DNA of 64,000 bases from an uncultured Alphaproteobacteria bacterium (GTDB lineage: Bacteria; Pseudomonadota; Alphaproteobacteria; Rs-D84). This document shows, one piece after another, positions 14,136 to 55,414 of the stretch. Position numbers and translations under genes: made by a program. Location of the stretch: NCBI GenBank assembly GCA_951801825.1, contig CATOOF010000001.1, forward strand, positions 380,132-444,131, given 5' to 3'. How positions within the stretch are numbered: the first letter of the stretch is position 1; every line of letters begins with the position of its first letter. The notes beneath the pieces were generated by a model that saw only the letters and a program-made list of their open reading frames with translations, did no database searches and was not told the origin of the DNA.

Positions 14136-14320
14136 CAATCTGTATCATGTCTGGTATAATTCCCATTGCATCGGGTGATACCCGGTGTGAGGTGTAACAA
14201 CCTCCAATAGTTTTAAAACTCCACAACCGGTTGGAGGGCTGTGATATATCTAAATAAACAGCACTATACTATTGTAGTTGTTAACCTCCAACCGCCCTTC
14301 ATCACGGCGGATTTTTGTTT
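14133..14320 (+). promoter_or_regulatory. Leader family copy A. Promoter TTGCAA-16-TATAAT (14133-14160), ~150-nt structured leader with a CCAACCGGTTGG hairpin, alternative antiterminator (GGTTGGAGG vs CCTCCAACC) and an intrinsic terminator (14291-14320).
   Basis: Near-consensus promoter. CCGCC/GGCGG stem plus T-run immediately upstream of the SD GGAGG of the HTH gene. X1/Y/X2 complementary segments. Homologous to the element at 25176-25365 (reverse strand) and 38318-38504. Confidence 0.6.
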
Positions 14321-14341
14321 TTCAAAAATACGGAGGATAAA

Positions 14342-14560
14342 ATGAAAACAGAACAGGAATTCGCAATTGCCTTGAAAAAAGCGATGCGCTATGCTCGTAA
14401 ACACAAATGCCCCCAGTATATCGCGCGACATATGGGACTGTGCCCCGGGGTATATTTTGCCTATGAATCAGGCGCTATAAAATTATCTGCATACCAGCTG
14501 TATGTGTTTATTCATTTAACCGGCATGGGACCGGATTTTATCACGAGTATTTATAAATAA
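14342..14560 (+). CDS. Small XRE-family helix-turn-helix protein (72 aa)
   Basis: SD GGAGG 5 nt upstream. HTH-like EFAIALKKAMRYARKHKCPQYIARHMGLCPGVYFAYESG. Paralogous to 24931..25155. Confidence 0.65.
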   Translation: MKTEQEFAIALKKAMRYARKHKCPQYIARHMGLCPGVYFAYESGAIKLSAYQLYVFIHLTGMGPDFITSIYK

Positions 14561-23468: not shown

Positions 23469-24901
23469 AGACAGCAATAACACCCACGCGTGCTGAAAAT
23501 TTCAGCGAATGGTATCAGAATCTGATAACAGCGGCCGACCTGGCGGAAAATGCGCCGGTTCGCGGCTGTATGACGATAAAGCCGTACGGCTGGGCGATAT
23601 GGGAACTGATGCGTGATGAAATGGACCGTCGTATAAAGGCCCAGGGCGTCCTGAATGCAAACTTCCCTCTGCTGATTCCAATCGATTTCTTTAACCGAGA
23701 GGCGGAACATGTCGCCGGATTTGCGAAAGAGGCGGCGGTTGTCACACATTACCGCTTGAAAATGATTGAGGGTTCCCTGGCGCCCGACCCGGAATCCAAA
23801 CTGACCGAGCCATATATAATCCGCCCGACATCCGAAACAATAATAGGCGAGGCGATGTCTCGCTGGGTTCAGTCATACCGTGACCTGCCGATGAAATTGA
23901 ACCAGTGGGTAAATGTAATGCGCTGGGAAATGCGTCCGCGCATGTTCCTGCGTACATCCGAATTTAACTGGCAAGAAGGCCACAACGTATTCGCCACGCA
24001 CGAAGAGGCGAACGCCGATGCACGTAAAATGCATAAGCTCTATGGCGACTATATGCGCGATGTTTTGGCGATTCCGGCAATCATGGGTGAAAAAACACCA
24101 GAAGAGCGTTTTGCCGGCGCCGACCATACATATACCACCGAACAGATAATGCAGGACGGCAAGGCGCTGCAGGCGGGCACATCCCACGACCTGGGCCAGC
24201 ATTTCTCAAAATCGTTCGGTATAAAATATTTGGGCACCGACGGCCAGTTGCACCATGCATGGACAACATCATGGGGTACGTCAACGCGTATGATGGGCGG
24301 TCTGTTTATGACGCACAGTGACGACGATGGTCTGGTCCTGCCGCCAATGGTCGCCCCGTACCAGGTTGTGATTATACCGTTGGTTCGCGACGGAAATGAT
24401 GACGCGCTAAATGCGTATGCGGAAAAAATCGGTGATGACCTGCGTGCGCATGGCATTCGCGTTCTGGTCGATACATCCGATATGCGCGGGCCGGATAAAA
24501 TGTGGAAATGGATTAAGCGCGGCGTGCCACTGCGTGTGGAAATCGGTGCGCGCGAAATGGCGGCGGACCAGATAACCGTCACACGTCGTGACCTGGGCAA
24601 GGCGTCAAAGCAGACAATGGCGGCGGCCGAATTTGCATCCGTCGCCGCGGAAATGCTGCACGTGATGCATAAAGACATGTATAACGCCGCCGCCGCGCGC
24701 AATGCAACGATGATAAAGAATGTTGAATCGCTGGACGCGCTGGCCGCGGCATTAGGGGCGGGTGAAATCGGGTTCTTCCGCTTAAAGTATGATTTGACAT
24801 TGGCGCCGGAATTCGATGCGATTATGGATACGTACAAGGTATCGCGTCGCTGTCTGGATGATGCGGACCCGACATACGTGTTTGTCGCAAAATCGTATTA
24901 A
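23465..24901 (+). CDS. proS: Prolyl-tRNA synthetase (archaeal/eukaryote-type class II, ~478 aa)
   Basis: RAENFSEWYQNLI N-terminus, class II motifs. Overlaps olsA by 4 nt. Confidence 0.9.
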   Translation: MKTAITPTRAENFSEWYQNLITAADLAENAPVRGCMTIKPYGWAIWELMRDEMDRRIKAQGVLNANFPLLIPIDFFNREAEHVAGFAKEAAVVTHYRLKMIEGSLAPDPESKLTEPYIIRPTSETIIGEAMSRWVQSYRDLPMKLNQWVNVMRWEMRPRMFLRTSEFNWQEGHNVFATHEEANADARKMHKLYGDYMRDVLAIPAIMGEKTPEERFAGADHTYTTEQIMQDGKALQAGTSHDLGQHFSKSFGIKYLGTDGQLHHAWTTSWGTSTRMMGGLFMTHSDDDGLVLPPMVAPYQVVIIPLVRDGNDDALNAYAEKIGDDLRAHGIRVLVDTSDMRGPDKMWKWIKRGVPLRVEIGAREMAADQITVTRRDLGKASKQTMAAAEFASVAAEMLHVMHKDMYNAAAARNATMIKNVESLDALAAALGAGEIGFFRLKYDLTLAPEFDAIMDTYKVSRRCLDDADPTYVFVAKSY

Positions 24902-24904
24902 ACA

Positions 24905-24933
24905 ATCCCCGCCAGCGCGGGGATTTTTTTTTA
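24905..24933. terminator. Bidirectional intrinsic terminator between proS and the convergent HTH gene.
   Basis: ATCCCCGC/GCGGGGAT stem flanked by T/A runs. Confidence 0.7.
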
Positions 24934-25155
24934 TTTCCAATCTTTTAACAGCTCAATATTACACATGTGTATCAGACGATATACCTGGTACGGTGTCGGG
25001 TGAATCTTGCCCTTTTCAATCTCGTAATACACCAACCCATGTATCCCCAGCATGCGTCCCGTGTAATAAGGGCTAAGGTTTGTCTTTTTCCGCATGCGCC
25101 GCATAATATGCCCCAGCGACCTGTAAAACTCTTGCTCTGATTGTAATTTTTTCAT
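24931..25155 (-). CDS. Small XRE-family helix-turn-helix protein (74 aa), paralogue of 14342..14560
   Basis: SD GGAGGATAAAC upstream on the minus strand, nearly identical to copy A. HTH segment LGHIMRRMRKKTNLSPYYTGRMLGIHGLVYYEIEKG. Confidence 0.65.
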   Translation of the reverse strand: MKKLQSEQEFYRSLGHIMRRMRKKTNLSPYYTGRMLGIHGLVYYEIEKGKIHPTPYQVYRLIHMCNIELLKDWK

Positions 25156-25175: not shown

Positions 25176-25365
25176 TTATAAAAAACATACCGCCGTGATG
25201 AAGGGCGGTTGGAGGTTAGATACTATTCGTCATAGTCCTGCTTATTTAGGTATATCACAGGCCTCCAACCATGTTGGAGAATAATTTAACGAAGAGGTAT
25301 CTACACCTCACATTGGTAATCATCCAATGCGGTATGAATTATAACATAATAATTGCGCTTTGCAA
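25176..25365 (-). promoter_or_regulatory. Leader family copy B (reverse orientation): promoter TTGCAA-16-TATAAT on the minus strand (25338-25365), structured leader, terminator (25176-25208).
   Basis: Reverse complement aligns along its length with 14161-14320, including GTGAGGTGTA, CTCCAAC-ATG-GTTGGAGG, CCTCCAACCGCCCTTCATCACGGCGG. Confidence 0.6.
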
Positions 25366-28595: not shown

Positions 28596-29846
28596 ATGAT
28601 TAAATTACCTGAACTTTTGGCGCCGGCCGGAACGCTGGACGCATTTAAAACGGCCATTTTATATGGCGCTGATGCAATATATGCGGGACTGCCCGGTTTT
28701 TCTATGCGCGCCCGTGCAAAAATTACCACCGAAGAGGTAAAGGCCGGAATCGAATTGGCACATGCCGCTGGGAAAAAGGTTTATTTGGCCTTTAACCTGT
28801 TTGCACATGATGCAGAATATGCAAATCTTTCGCGGGTCAGTGAAACAATACGCTATCTGCGGCCTGATGCGCTGATTGTTTCCGACCCCGGTATTGTAAT
28901 GTGGGTGCGTGAAAATCATCCCGATATTCCGATTCATATTTCAACCCAGGCAAATATATGTTCGGCGCGTTCTGTAAAATTTTGGCAGGCGGCCGGTGCC
29001 CGTTTATGTGTTCTTGCGCGTGAGGTATCGCACAGTGAATTCAAATCGATACGCGCGGCATGCCCTGATGTTGGGCTGGAAATATTCGTTCATGGTGCGA
29101 TGTGCATGTCGTATTCCGGGCGGTGCCTGTTGTCTAATTTCGTGACCGGGCGTCCGGCAAATCGTGGGGCGTGCGCCCAGCTGTGTCGTTGGAAATACGA
29201 CGTTATATTGCGCGAGCGCGAATCGGGCCTGGAAATGCCCCTGGAAGAAGATGAGCGCGGCGCATATATAATGAACTCAAAAGATTTGTGTTTGATGCCC
29301 CGCCTGGGCGAGGTTGTCGCCGCCCGGCCGGATTCTCTGAAGATAGAGGGGCGCAACCGCAGCGAGTATTATGTGGGCAGTGTAGTGCATGCATATCGCT
29401 GTGCGCTGGATGCATATGCCGCCGCCCCGGATAAATTTGACCCGGCGCCTTTTATGGCGGCGTTGAATGTTTTAGAAACACGTGGATATACGACGGCTTT
29501 CTTTGATGGGCCCGTTGGTGCCGACGCGCATGATTATAATACCACGCGATCTACGTCAGAATATCATGCCGCCGGGGTTATAACGGCCGTTAATTCTGAT
29601 AAGATTACATTGGAATTGCGAAATGAAATAAAGGCGGGCGATGAAATAACATTTATACTGCCCGGAACAATGGATAATGTATCTGTATTGCTAGAGCGGA
29701 TTATAAACGCGGCCAACGGCGCGGATGTTCCAAAAATGGCCGCGGGCCAGCGTAACAGCATAATTATTCCGCGCCAATGGTTGTGCGGTGCACCTGTGGA
29801 AAATTTCGCGGTAAACGTTCTGGCATATAAGAAAAAGAATAAATAA
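28596..29846 (+). CDS. Peptidase U32 family protein (YhbU/RlhA-like)
   Basis: MIKLPELLAPAGTLDAFKTAILYGADAIYAG N-terminus characteristic of the U32 family. The ORF-track start 28443 overlaps the tRNA and is rejected. Confidence 0.8.
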   Translation: MIKLPELLAPAGTLDAFKTAILYGADAIYAGLPGFSMRARAKITTEEVKAGIELAHAAGKKVYLAFNLFAHDAEYANLSRVSETIRYLRPDALIVSDPGIVMWVRENHPDIPIHISTQANICSARSVKFWQAAGARLCVLAREVSHSEFKSIRAACPDVGLEIFVHGAMCMSYSGRCLLSNFVTGRPANRGACAQLCRWKYDVILRERESGLEMPLEEDERGAYIMNSKDLCLMPRLGEVVAARPDSLKIEGRNRSEYYVGSVVHAYRCALDAYAAAPDKFDPAPFMAALNVLETRGYTTAFFDGPVGADAHDYNTTRSTSEYHAAGVITAVNSDKITLELRNEIKAGDEITFILPGTMDNVSVLLERIINAANGADVPKMAAGQRNSIIIPRQWLCGAPVENFAVNVLAYKKKNK

Positions 29847-29875
29847 ATCCCCGCAAAATGCGGGGGATTTTTTTA
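29847..29875. terminator. Bidirectional terminator between the U32 peptidase gene and cvpA
   Basis: ATCCCCGC/GCGGGGGAT stem plus T-run. Confidence 0.7.
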
Positions 29876-29886
29876 CAGTTGTTTTT

Positions 29887-38007: not shown

Positions 38008-38015
38008 AATGCATT

Positions 38016-38042
38016 GCCCCCGCAACGGCGGGGGATTTTTTT
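38016..38042 (+). terminator. Intrinsic terminator after 36247..38007
   Basis: CCCCCGC/GCGGGGG stem plus T7. Confidence 0.75.
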
Positions 38043-38094
38043 ATAGCATTTAACGCACAAATAGGATATGGTGCCACTTGTAATAGGGAACCTA

Positions 38095-38265
38095 TTATGC
38101 GAGATTAGTACTCTCGCCCAACAACCGCCTGCGCAGGCGTAAAATGCCAATCCCATCCCGGGGGTTGGATGCGGTGAATATATGGAATAAGCCGTAAGCA
38201 TGTTGTTGTGCGAAGTACTAACTTCAGCCCCCGCCCTGTATTACATGGCGGCTTTTATATTTTCG
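38095..38265 (+). promoter_or_regulatory. Degenerate leader-family-like unit (C1) ending in a CCGCC/GGCGG terminator (38231-38265)
   Basis: Contains CCCAACAACC, GGGGGTTGGATG and CCCCCGCCCTGTATTACATGGCGG plus T-run, resembling the X/Y/terminator layout of copies A and B. Confidence 0.3.
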
Positions 38266-38282
38266 TAAAATATTATGGCAAT

Positions 38283-38504
38283 GCCATAATCTCGAATATA
38301 TAATTTGGTGTGGCGCGTAATGGAAAAAACTGTTACCAGCGCGAGGCGTAGAAAACCTCAAGTACACGATCGCCTGTTGTGTTACGGGCGTTAAACTTCC
38401 AACCCGTGGTTGGAGGCGGGTCTTATATATTGAAAGGACCCGGGCAATTCATAGTGTATTGTTTTTCTACCCTCCAACCACCAATGTTTTCAGGTGGTTT
38501 TTTG
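38283..38504 (+). promoter_or_regulatory. Leader family copy C2: 17-bp palindrome TTATGGCA-A-TGCCATAA overlapping the -35, -10 TATAAT (38309-38314), structured leader with TCCAACC-CGT-GGTTGGAGG hairpin, CCTCCAACC, terminator AACCACC/GGTGGTT plus T-run (38476-38504)
   Basis: Homology to copy A in the segments AAACTTCCAACCCGTGGTTGGAGGCGGGTCTTATATATTG and CCTCCAACC-terminator. Followed by SD GGGGGAGAG and an ATG. Confidence 0.5.
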
Positions 38505-38530
38505 TTAAAGCCTAACAGGGGGAGAGACCG

Positions 38531-38809
38531 ATGAAAAAGAAAGCCGCTGAAAATGCGTTTGCGCCCGATTCCAACGAATTGAAAAGAGAAAGTGGGGTAA
38601 ATATACCGGAATCAGAATTTCCGGCGCCATTGATTTATAAACTATCAGAATTTTATCGACGCTGGCCGGATTATCCGACGGGCATTGTTGAAATAGCCAT
38701 CCTCGCGCGTATTTTGCATACTGAAATGGACAAGTTTTTACATCGGCCGCATAAACAGGTAACGCAAATATATTTCGACTGTGATGCCGCCGACAAACAT
38801 TTGGTATAA
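38531..38809 (+). CDS. Hypothetical protein (92 aa) downstream of leader copy C2
   Basis: SD GGGGGAGAG, terminated by the bidirectional terminator. Confidence 0.5.
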   Translation: MKKKAAENAFAPDSNELKRESGVNIPESEFPAPLIYKLSEFYRRWPDYPTGIVEIAILARILHTEMDKFLHRPHKQVTQIYFDCDAADKHLV

Positions 38810-38812
38810 AAA

Positions 38813-38841
38813 ATCCCCCGCTGTTGCGGGGGGATTTTTTT
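38813..38841. terminator. Bidirectional terminator shared with the convergent ferredoxin gene
   Basis: CCCCCGC/GCGGGGG stem flanked by A/T runs. Confidence 0.7.
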
Positions 38842-39022
38842 ACTTCGCATCCGGTGCGATTGCCGCCACCGGGCAAATTGCTGCACATGTGCCGCATGAT
38901 ATGCATTTTGCTGGGTCGATAACACATTTGCCATCAGGGCCGACAGATATTGCCATAACCGGGCATGCCCCCATGCACGTATGGCATGCGATACATTTTG
39001 CCGGATCAATTTTATATGCCAT
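38840..39022 (-). CDS. 2x[4Fe-4S] ferredoxin (60 aa)
   Basis: Two CxxCxxCxxxCP motifs (CIACHTCMGACP, CISCGTCAAICP). Confidence 0.88.
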   Translation of the reverse strand: MAYKIDPAKCIACHTCMGACPVMAISVGPDGKCVIDPAKCISCGTCAAICPVAAIAPDAK

Positions 39023-39824: not shown

Positions 39825-40076
39825 ATGAACATTGCACCTGTCAGAACAATAAAAGTGACAGACACATTGGGCCATCCAGCTCCAGATGAGATAATGTCAA
39901 TGGAAAGTCATAAACGGCGCAAGAATGTATTGACTGCATTGGATGCAATACTGGTTCAGCGTAATCGGGAATTACAGGAAGAACTGGTAAAACCAAATCC
40001 GGATAAGGAATATATTGCAAGACGTATTGCTATAATAAATAATATTAAAAATACCCTTCGGGCGGCTCAACGATAA
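39825..40076 (+). CDS. Small hypothetical protein (83 aa)
   Basis: ORF with SD-like AAAGGAAAA upstream. Confidence 0.4.
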   Translation: MNIAPVRTIKVTDTLGHPAPDEIMSMESHKRRKNVLTALDAILVQRNRELQEELVKPNPDKEYIARRIAIINNIKNTLRAAQR

Positions 40077-55062: not shown

Positions 55063-55414
55063 TAAAAAATCCCCGCCGTTTGGCGGGGGGATTTTTTTGC
55101 TTCTGTTTATGTGTTGCACAGGGGCGCGGTATTTTTCCCTTCGTTTGCTTTTTTTAGGACGCCGGCCCTAACTCTTTTATTGTAGTTGGCTTCGGTTTTA
55201 TTTGTTTATTGCATGCGGTTGTTTTAGGGGGAGGATAGTTCTTTATTCTTGCAAATGTTTCATTGGATTGCGGGCTTGTGTCTTTATAGGAAAACTTCCG
55301 TGAAAATTTTAGTTGAATTTTATATGTGTTTCAATCACAATAAGAAACGAGTCCTTGGATTTTGATTGGTGTAAAGGAAAATCGAAAATATAGAAATTTA
55401 AAGGAGAGGGAAAA

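Follow-up and report, generated by a model that had tools for sequence, protein, structure and literature searches.

In terminator/antiterminator leaders (riboswitches and attenuators, among them the tandem glycine and thiamine pyrophosphate (TPP) riboswitches) a structured 5' leader ends in an intrinsic terminator, and a mutually exclusive antiterminator shares a strand with the closing stem; in the tandem riboswitches complete units are, moreover, repeated before one gene. The same scheme is found at the locus described here, which lies in a 64,000-nucleotide stretch of contig CATOOF010000001.1 (hereafter the window), where two structured units, D and C, stand in series upstream of an open reading frame (ORF) of 92 amino acids (aa). 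Unlike known riboswitches and leaders, it matches no riboswitch or leader in Rfam and has no assigned ligand, its switching strand picks between two identical copies of CUCCAACC, every unit carries a promoter, and the genes that follow the units encode regulators, surface proteins and methylases rather than the members of one pathway. Functionally the leader is of the terminator/antiterminator type, yet it fails every specific family tested. Based on our findings we consider it probable that the leader is a two-state, default-off transcription attenuator.

Leader-peptide attenuators (trp, thr, leu) likewise have terminator/antiterminator alternatives in the 5' leader, but neither an ATG column nor an ORF length is conserved across the 125 units examined below: counting ATG starts only, the commonest ATG column occurs in 31 of the 125 units and the ORFs range from 3 to 52 codons. 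Ribosome-mediated attenuation is therefore unlikely, and a leader-peptide attenuator was rejected. A T-box leader was rejected as well, as no T-box match was obtained in either leader region at E values up to 10. The c-di-GMP-I/II (GEMM) riboswitches occur in many copies per genome, before adhesins or other surface proteins and regulators, and sometimes in tandem; however, their architecture differs, and no Rfam match to them was found at the gathering threshold or at E up to 10.

The units belong to a larger family. An earlier note on this DNA had proposed that the region is the third locus of a leader family with copies A and B elsewhere in the window, and that it holds two tandem units. The likeness of A-D was first seen by eye and in a four-way MAFFT alignment; a covariance model (CM), R1, was built from 89 non-redundant relatives, leaving out unit D of the window but including two D-type relatives (L043, L067), and was run with cmsearch over the window. 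R1 scores copies A and B with 156 bits (E 2.8e-33) and 154 bits (E 9.5e-33), unit C (38295-38511) with 75.8 bits (E 2.4e-15) and unit D (38061-38265) with 58 bits (E 2.3e-11). As nothing else in the 64 kb scores comparably, the similarity is far beyond chance, and the region 38008-38530 is indeed a third family locus with two tandem units. A repeat search of the window failed to connect the copies, which are too diverged or gapped for it.

Outside the window the family is widespread in one group of bacteria. The pattern GGTTGGAGG-N7-TATA-N25-55-CTCCAACC matches three times in the window (A, B and C; 0 expected) and in more than 116 stretches of species-representative genomes, with several copies per assembly and, among the matches listed, at least six in two assemblies. 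Nearly all matches listed are gut metagenome-assembled genomes titled Candidatus Enterousia or uncultured Alphaproteobacteria, Rickettsiales or proteobacterium, so that the hosts probably belong to the order Rs-D84, whose genomes are mostly smaller than 1 Mb and encode a fermentative metabolism without a tricarboxylic acid cycle (PMC12306168). In the fetched loci R1 finds 125 units. Rfam 15 detects only three tRNAs at the gathering threshold in the whole window, and at E up to 10 the C/D and A regions give weak, chance-level matches, with the exception of sRNA-Xcc1 in copy A. Motif copies are absent from viral contigs, and a literature search returned nothing on riboswitches in Rs-D84 or on the core sequences, the Enterousia papers dealing with genome biology only. 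The leader is thus an RNA family without an Rfam 15 match at threshold, and the window locus is a tandem case of it. Two leader-bearing contigs, L013 and L049, have been assigned to bins of Bacteroides fragilis and Muribaculaceae, but probably represent mis-binned Rs-D84 DNA.

All four units of the window fold separately into one shape (z-scores -3.2 to -5.7), i.e. a 5' hairpin P0, a long closing stem P1/P1b, a junction with P3 and P4, and a terminator hairpin, with an extra helix P2 in C and D. In an alignment of 125 sequences 93.7% of the helix cells are paired, compared to 72.2% in shuffles, double changes occur at 42 of 46 pairs and in 1194 cells (348 in shuffles), and the covariation score is 0.544, as against 0.17 for shuffled sequences and no more than 0.096 after sliding of the partners. 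Each of the seven P0 pairs has double changes at the family level, and the terminator stem covaries (GC67/AU46, CG111/UA9) and is followed by a U-run. An assumption-free mutual-information scan with average product correction (MI/APC) places its top 19 column pairs within the proposed helices without exception. P1/P1b varies in sequence and is cognate-specific: cognate duplexes have a mean energy of -23.3 kcal/mol, compared to -13.6 kcal/mol for non-cognate duplexes, and 71 of 88 are more stable than each of the 20 non-cognates. Hence, seven helices (P0, P1, P1b, P2, P3, P4 and the terminator) are supported, the first six forming a covarying domain as expected for the sensor of an attenuator or riboswitch-like element. 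Unpaired stretches are conserved as well, namely the P4 loop GAUAUAUnUnAAUAAR, the junction strand J4/1b (CACUAU) and an internal loop, ACCUC.

Just upstream of the regulated ORF a terminator hairpin with a U-tract is present in unit C (38476-38505) and, weaker, in unit D (38231-38262). The earlier note had given unit D a terminator of its own; both units have one, with the stem CCGCC/GGCGG in D and AACCACC/GGUGGUU in C (Table 1). Moreover, each unit appears to have its own σ70-type promoter, given the family consensus tttt..TTG-N17-tgaTATAAT (102 units), a -10 element of unit C that is invariant in four species, and TATNNT at the -10 position of five of six other aligned D-type units. Family members may thus be described as self-contained expression cassettes that combine a predicted strong promoter of this type, a structured 5' leader of roughly 190 nt and an intrinsic terminator.

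The switch itself is based on strand sharing. In the family P3 hairpin, CUCCAAC/GUUGGAG, the 3' strand GGUUGGAGG is complementary both to the P3 5' strand CUCCAAC and to the identical downstream CCUCCAACC, whose CCAACC overlaps the terminator stem (AACC[A/G]CC...GG[U/C]GGUU) by 2-4 nucleotides (nt). Pairing of GGUUGGAGG with CCUCCAACC thus excludes P3 and removes part of the terminator stem. This antiterminator has double changes at five of its eight pairs, and among the CM-only units, i.e. those that were found by R1 and not forced by the search pattern, compensatory pairs include GGCAGGAGA/UCUCCUGCC, GGUCGGAGG/CCUCCGACC, GGUCGGGGG/UCCCCGACC, ...GU/AC... and ...GA/UC.... D-type units compensate likewise (GGGGGUUGGA/UUCAGCCCCC in the window, GGGACUGGA/UCCAGUCCC in L090, GGAUUGGAGG/CCUCCAAUCC in L072). 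Additionally, a local hairpin P1', GRGG-N8-CYCC, covaries (GC43/AU33), whereas the distal partner is fixed; this, like the short helix UAU:AUA with its pair 392-412 (UA82/AU31), fits a state with P1 open. Both alternative pairings are therefore supported by comparison. At the decision point the P3/P1 state is more stable by 7.5 +/- 5.5 kcal/mol, and the antiterminated state is favoured in only 8% of 115 units. As the computed energies favour the terminating fold, we infer that termination is the default. The switching probably controls termination.

In the terminating state (state T) P3 and P1/P1b would form, the terminator would fold, and RNA polymerase would stop about 30 nt before the ribosome-binding site. 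In the antiterminated state (state AT) GGUUGGAGG would swap to CCUCCAACC, a stretch that includes the 3' end of P1 together with the initial 2-4 bases of the terminator stem; P1 would open, its 5' strand would fold into the local hairpin GRGG-N8-CYCC, and with the terminator blocked the gene would be transcribed. As state T is the default by energy, some input must drive state AT, which may be a small ligand, a protein or another RNA. At the window locus D, with a weak promoter and no ORF, and C, with its own promoter, would act in series before the 92-aa ORF, i.e. transcripts from the D promoter would pass two gates and those from the C promoter one.

Several observations weigh against an attenuator of this kind. 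The energy comparison leaves out co-transcriptional kinetics. In most copies the 9-bp core of the antiterminator does not vary, in part because it was demanded by the search pattern, so that the covariation of the antiterminator rests on about 15 CM-only or D-type units; beyond the core, cognate extensions pair no better than the non-cognate control. Two Watson-Crick covariations, columns 82-388 (UA67/CG35) and 392-412 (UA82/AU31) of alignment A4, fit neither nested fold. They correspond in copy A to about 14193 with 14263 and about 14265 with 14276, respectively, and connect J4/1b to the internal loop of P1 and to the P1/P1b bulge; they may be pseudoknot or tertiary contacts, or else pairs of the alternative, P1-open state, to which the short helix UAU:AUA, which holds 392-412, would then belong. 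Finally, the terminator of D is weak, having a GC stem of 5 bp, a loop of 11 nt and a U-tract that is interrupted, and a simple terminator scan missed those of both D and C, as their loops exceed 8 nt.

Unit D had been called degenerate in the earlier note, a description that the comparison with the orthologous loci L008, L001 and L005, the latter two from the more distant species, contradicts. At the nucleotide level unit D is 94.3%, 92.7% and 92.2% identical to these loci, respectively, compared to 90.9%, 75.7% and 73.3% for unit C, 92.5%, 70.6% and 66.3% for the 92-aa ORF and 58.5%, 50.9% and 49.1% for the D-C spacer with the C promoter region. Being the most conserved element of the locus, D is not a decaying copy. 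It does depart from the family consensus (GGUUGGAUG; CUUCAGCCCCC in place of CCUCCAACC), but it does so as a member of a recognisable subfamily with P0 UAAUAGG-GAA-CCUAUUA, conserved in sequence within the subfamily, followed by GCGAGAUUAG. In L043 a D-type unit is the only leader before an XRE gene, and in L090 and L072 such units are upstream members of arrays. In the window no ORF lies between D and the C promoter; D may serve as an additional gate for transcripts that start at its own promoter, as an RNA that stands alone, or as both. The swap of a strand between two identical partners, combined with an ultra-conserved unit that lacks an ORF, is unusual and should be of interest to RNA biologists.

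The leader is not tied to one type of gene. An ORF preceded by a Shine-Dalgarno sequence follows on the same strand after 114 of 122 units, mostly starting about 37-60 nt past CCAACC. Pfam matches among 108 downstream proteins comprise 34 to HTH_31, 16 to HTH_3 and 15 to HTH_19, which are overlapping XRE-type models and hence stand for at least 34 proteins, eight to the Listeria-Bacteroides repeat, three to outer membrane beta-barrels and two to the Cys-rich Ephrin_rec_like family. There are also two DNA methylases, one EcoRI-type and one C5, and many proteins without a Pfam match, and about 48 of 113 downstream proteins have an N-terminal signal- or transmembrane-like segment. With XRE regulators, secreted or surface proteins and methylases behind the same leader, the suggestion of the earlier note that it is a portable cassette is strongly supported. 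Tandem arrays recur, with three units each in L106 and L072 and two each in L051 and L090; the array of L106 precedes a small XRE-like ORF and that of L051 an XRE ORF. In L072 (2346-3754, minus strand) the units 3754-3546, 3365-3165 and 3135-2932 stand before an ORF of 186 aa, the product of which has a signal peptide and an HxK motif (IMHNKFAIFD) and, judged by these features, looks like a PLD/Nuc-like secreted nuclease. A split of short and long (P2-containing) leaders against gene class was dropped, as the heuristic was unreliable.

If the attenuator is real, one promoter-bearing RNA device would be the main switch for surface proteins and small regulators in uncultured gut bacteria with reduced genomes. 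With at least 125 copies, strong covariation and two supported conformers it would add a well-supported orphan switch to the structured RNAs that await a ligand or partner, and it would open a direct experimental route to what is sensed by these organisms, which appear to belong to Rs-D84 (Candidatus Enterousia and relatives).

What shifts the balance between the states may, tentatively, be a small molecule that binds the junction, which would make the leader a true riboswitch. Its complex multi-helix junction with conserved unpaired stretches, the additional Watson-Crick covariations, which are typical of tertiary folds, the terminator-type expression platform and the tandem units all fit such a function, as do the many copies per genome before unrelated, mostly non-metabolic genes, a distribution that resembles that of c-di-GMP riboswitches. 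The likeliest ligands would be a global signal, e.g. a nucleotide second messenger, or else a metabolite from the host or the community, and binding would coordinate surface proteins and XRE regulators. However, no ligand can be deduced from the downstream genes, which do not encode the enzymes or transporters of a single pathway; the most conserved sequences are the switching helices rather than an obvious binding pocket, and the Rfam riboswitch models give no match at E values as high as 10.

Alternatively, though this is a doubtful proposition, a trans-acting protein or RNA may drive antitermination, e.g. via the freed CUCCAAC strand and the A-rich linker or via the antiterminator three-way junction. 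P3 and the AU-rich P4 loop are near-invariant in more than 100 copies in which the other helices covary freely, but the constraints of three-way pairing alone can explain the invariance of P3. That the P0 of D-type units is conserved in sequence, beyond pairing, that D is more conserved than the gene after it, and that state T is the thermodynamic default, calling for an active input, would also agree with a trans-acting factor; on the other hand, no candidate was identified and no conserved partner gene adjoins the units. The cassette would then mark a regulon, and the ORF-less unit D could be a decoy or a trans-acting small RNA (sRNA).

Control at the DNA level, added on top of the RNA switch, might come from a palindrome at the C promoter, which the earlier note had read as a repressor operator. 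The palindrome is perfect and does overlap the -35 of a 10/12 σ70 match (38275-38304), but it lies at 38272-38290 and not at 38283-38299. As an operator it would bind a dimeric repressor, possibly a small XRE protein, and shut off the unit C promoter; a perfect 9+1+9 palindrome is expected by chance with a probability of about 2e-4 in a 45-bp spacer by our own estimate, it spans both the -35 and the spacer of the promoter, and XRE helix-turn-helix (HTH) genes lie downstream of many family members. Operators of the XRE/Cro type, however, are recognised by conservation in orthologues or by repetition at co-regulated promoters, and neither was observed. L008 has an imperfect right arm and L001 and L005 have none, even though these loci conserve the promoter and both RNA units; nothing but the left half ATTATGG.A and the -10 persists. 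A second copy or related site was not found in the window, and the family promoters share no operator-like motif, only the -35 TTG and the -10 TATAAT. An operator role of the palindrome is possible but without comparative support, and we regard it as unlikely.

It is still less likely that the units are free-standing sRNA genes of about 190 nt that act in trans, their upstream position being incidental or read-through unimportant. Each unit has a promoter and a terminator, D has no ORF before the next promoter, and the nearest Rfam neighbour, which is below threshold, is annotated as an sRNA. Nevertheless, 114 of 122 units point in one orientation, shortly upstream of an ORF with a Shine-Dalgarno sequence, and there is comparative support for a fold that disrupts the terminator, which is unexpected in a plain sRNA.

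This neighbour is sRNA-Xcc1 (RF02221), an integron-cassette sRNA of Xanthomonas. Its 87-nt model can be aligned from end to end with the antiterminator-state half of copy A (14229-14301), both having a 9-bp outer stem GGYYGGRGG/CCYCCRRCC around two hairpins, the first with an AUA-containing loop, followed by (G/A)CCCUU, and sRNA-Xcc1, too, lies just upstream of protein genes (symE, ORF6N/Rha-type). Membership of the leader in RF02221 was nevertheless rejected. The score of copy A is 30.7 bits, compared to a gathering score of 53; sRNA-Xcc1 was not found in eight other strong family members (E up to 1), nor in C or D; and a bona fide sRNA-Xcc1 at L180 (6703-6617, minus strand, 62.9 bits) has neither the upstream P0/P1/P3 half nor a terminator, so that context and architecture differ. 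R1 gives no match at this locus, a weak test given that R1 represents the other conformer. The leader also differs from sRNA-Xcc1 in host range and GC content, and sRNA-Xcc1 is the nearest neighbour only. At L180 (6561-6703, minus strand) sRNA-Xcc1 is followed by a Rha/ORF6N-type phage regulatory gene, the start codon of which lies about 55 nt downstream, and in published work the RNA is located before symE and before an ORF6N gene. This position suggests that, instead of being a free-standing sRNA, sRNA-Xcc1 may be a 5' leader that acts in cis, a role to which the sub-threshold resemblance to the leader, if the attenuator is real, also points. With due reserve, as the idea is more likely wrong than right, we speculate that the family is a new riboswitch-like class that senses one global signal, i.e. 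a second messenger or a host- or partner-derived molecule, and controls a regulon of surface or secreted proteins, small XRE regulators and DNA methylases in uncultured gut Alphaproteobacteria whose genomes are below 1 Mb, that ORF-less D-like units double as trans-acting or decoy RNAs, and that sRNA-Xcc1 of Xanthomonas and phages is perhaps a distant, truncated relative.

That the element acts as DNA, as a mobile promoter cassette or a block of recombination homology among surface-protein genes, with the RNA folds incidental, is highly improbable: it is multicopy, lineage-restricted and often located before surface or secreted proteins, and variable-lipoprotein genes of Mycoplasma share conserved 5' cassettes, but the sequence diverges within and between helices while pairing is kept (1194 versus 348 shuffled cells), the P1b helices are cognate-specific, no flanking inverted or direct repeats were noticed, and viral contigs lack copies.

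Table 1. Features of the tandem leader locus and of the other family copies in the window
Feature	Position	Strand	Basis or remark
Intrinsic terminator of the upstream 586/604-aa gene	38017-38046	+	Terminator scan, sequence; 5' boundary of the element
Unit D putative -10, TATGGT	38067-38072	+	cmsearch alignment to the family -10; predicted; -35 weak
Unit D P0, 5' hairpin UAAUAGG-GAA-CCUAUUA	38081-38097	+	
Unit D core	38105-38221	+	RNAfold z -3.2, CM hit, cross-species identity
Unit D closing stem P1/P1b	38105-38125 with 38202-38221	+	Encloses P2, P3, P4
Unit D P2	38126-38139		
Unit D P3	38147-38154 with 38161-38168		
Unit D P4	38170-38175 with 38191-38196		
Unit D switching strand GGGGGUUGGA	38159-38168	+	Pairs with P3 5' strand CCAAUCCC or with UUCAGCCCCC; read from sequence
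Unit D antiterminator target UUCAGCCCCC (38222-38231), then terminator and interrupted U-tract	38222-38262	+	
Unit D terminator CCGCC-loop-GGCGG	38231-38249	+	
Perfect 19-bp palindrome ATTATGGCA-A-TGCCATAAT (9+1+9)	38272-38290		Over -35 and spacer of unit C promoter
Unit C promoter ATGGCA-18-nt spacer-TATAAT (-10 at 38299-38304)	38275-38304	+	Promoter scan, 10/12
Unit C P0, 5' hairpin	38313-38342	+	RNAfold
Unit C core	38343-38474	+	RNAfold z -5.7, CM hit, family covariation
Unit C P1	38343-38355 with 38463-38474		
Unit C P1b	38361-38367 with 38454-38460		
Unit C P2	38371-38390		Within P1/P1b
Unit C P3	38396-38416		Within P1/P1b
Unit C P4	38417-38442		Within P1/P1b
Unit C switching strand GGUUGGAGG	38408-38416	+	P3 3' strand and antiterminator 5' strand
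Unit C CCUCCAACC	38471-38479	+	Common to P1 3' end, antiterminator target and first terminator-stem bases
Unit C intrinsic terminator AACCACC-N10-GGUGGUU with U-tract	38476-38505	+	RNAfold; stem to 38499
Shine-Dalgarno sequence AGGGGGAG of the 92-aa ORF	38517-38524	+	GGGGGA core kept in orthologues
92-aa ORF	38531-38809	+	Downstream of both leaders
Family copy A	14149-14324	+	CM 156 bits; upstream of 72-aa ORF 14342-14560
Family copy B	25176-25349	-	CM 154 bits; upstream of 75-aa XRE HTH ORF 25158-24931

The 92-aa ORF has no Pfam or NCBIfam match, HTH families included, and its protein has only five homologues among 5.8 billion proteins. The view of the earlier note that the gene does not encode an HTH protein is consistent with this but not proven. 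An AlphaFold2 model has low confidence (pLDDT 55) and contains two helices. The three homologue loci with fetched contigs are syntenic, with a secreted protein, a gap of about 530 bp, the ORF, ferredoxin and Bax1-I on the minus strand, and lgt. A loose F-x3-(H/W)P(D/G)Y stretch is common to the protein and to the products of the small leader-associated ORFs L047:4161-4388 and L100:2521-2673; in BLASTP these comparisons are not significant (E 0.016 in a single comparison, or no match). An 83-aa ORF without a family match (39825-40076) lies upstream of lgt and is kept in L001 and L005 (82-83 aa), with none called in L008.

As to the genes behind the other copies, the 72-aa ORF of copy A gives no Pfam match itself, but shares about 33% identity with the XRE-type protein of copy B and is homologous to leader-associated small ORFs at other loci. 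The 75-aa protein of copy B matches HTH_3 with E 1.7e-4, just below the Pfam cut-off (22 versus 23 bits). In copy A (14308-14332) an inverted repeat CGGATTTTTG/CAAAAATACG links the U-tract of the terminator to an A-run before the Shine-Dalgarno sequence and could influence the translation of read-through transcripts. A stereotyped gene-end terminator, CCCCGC-N4-GCGGGG with a T-run, is present in the window at 24899-24937, 29841-29879, 38017-38046, 38808-38846 and 55065-55103, and some of these terminators are bidirectional, lying between convergent genes.

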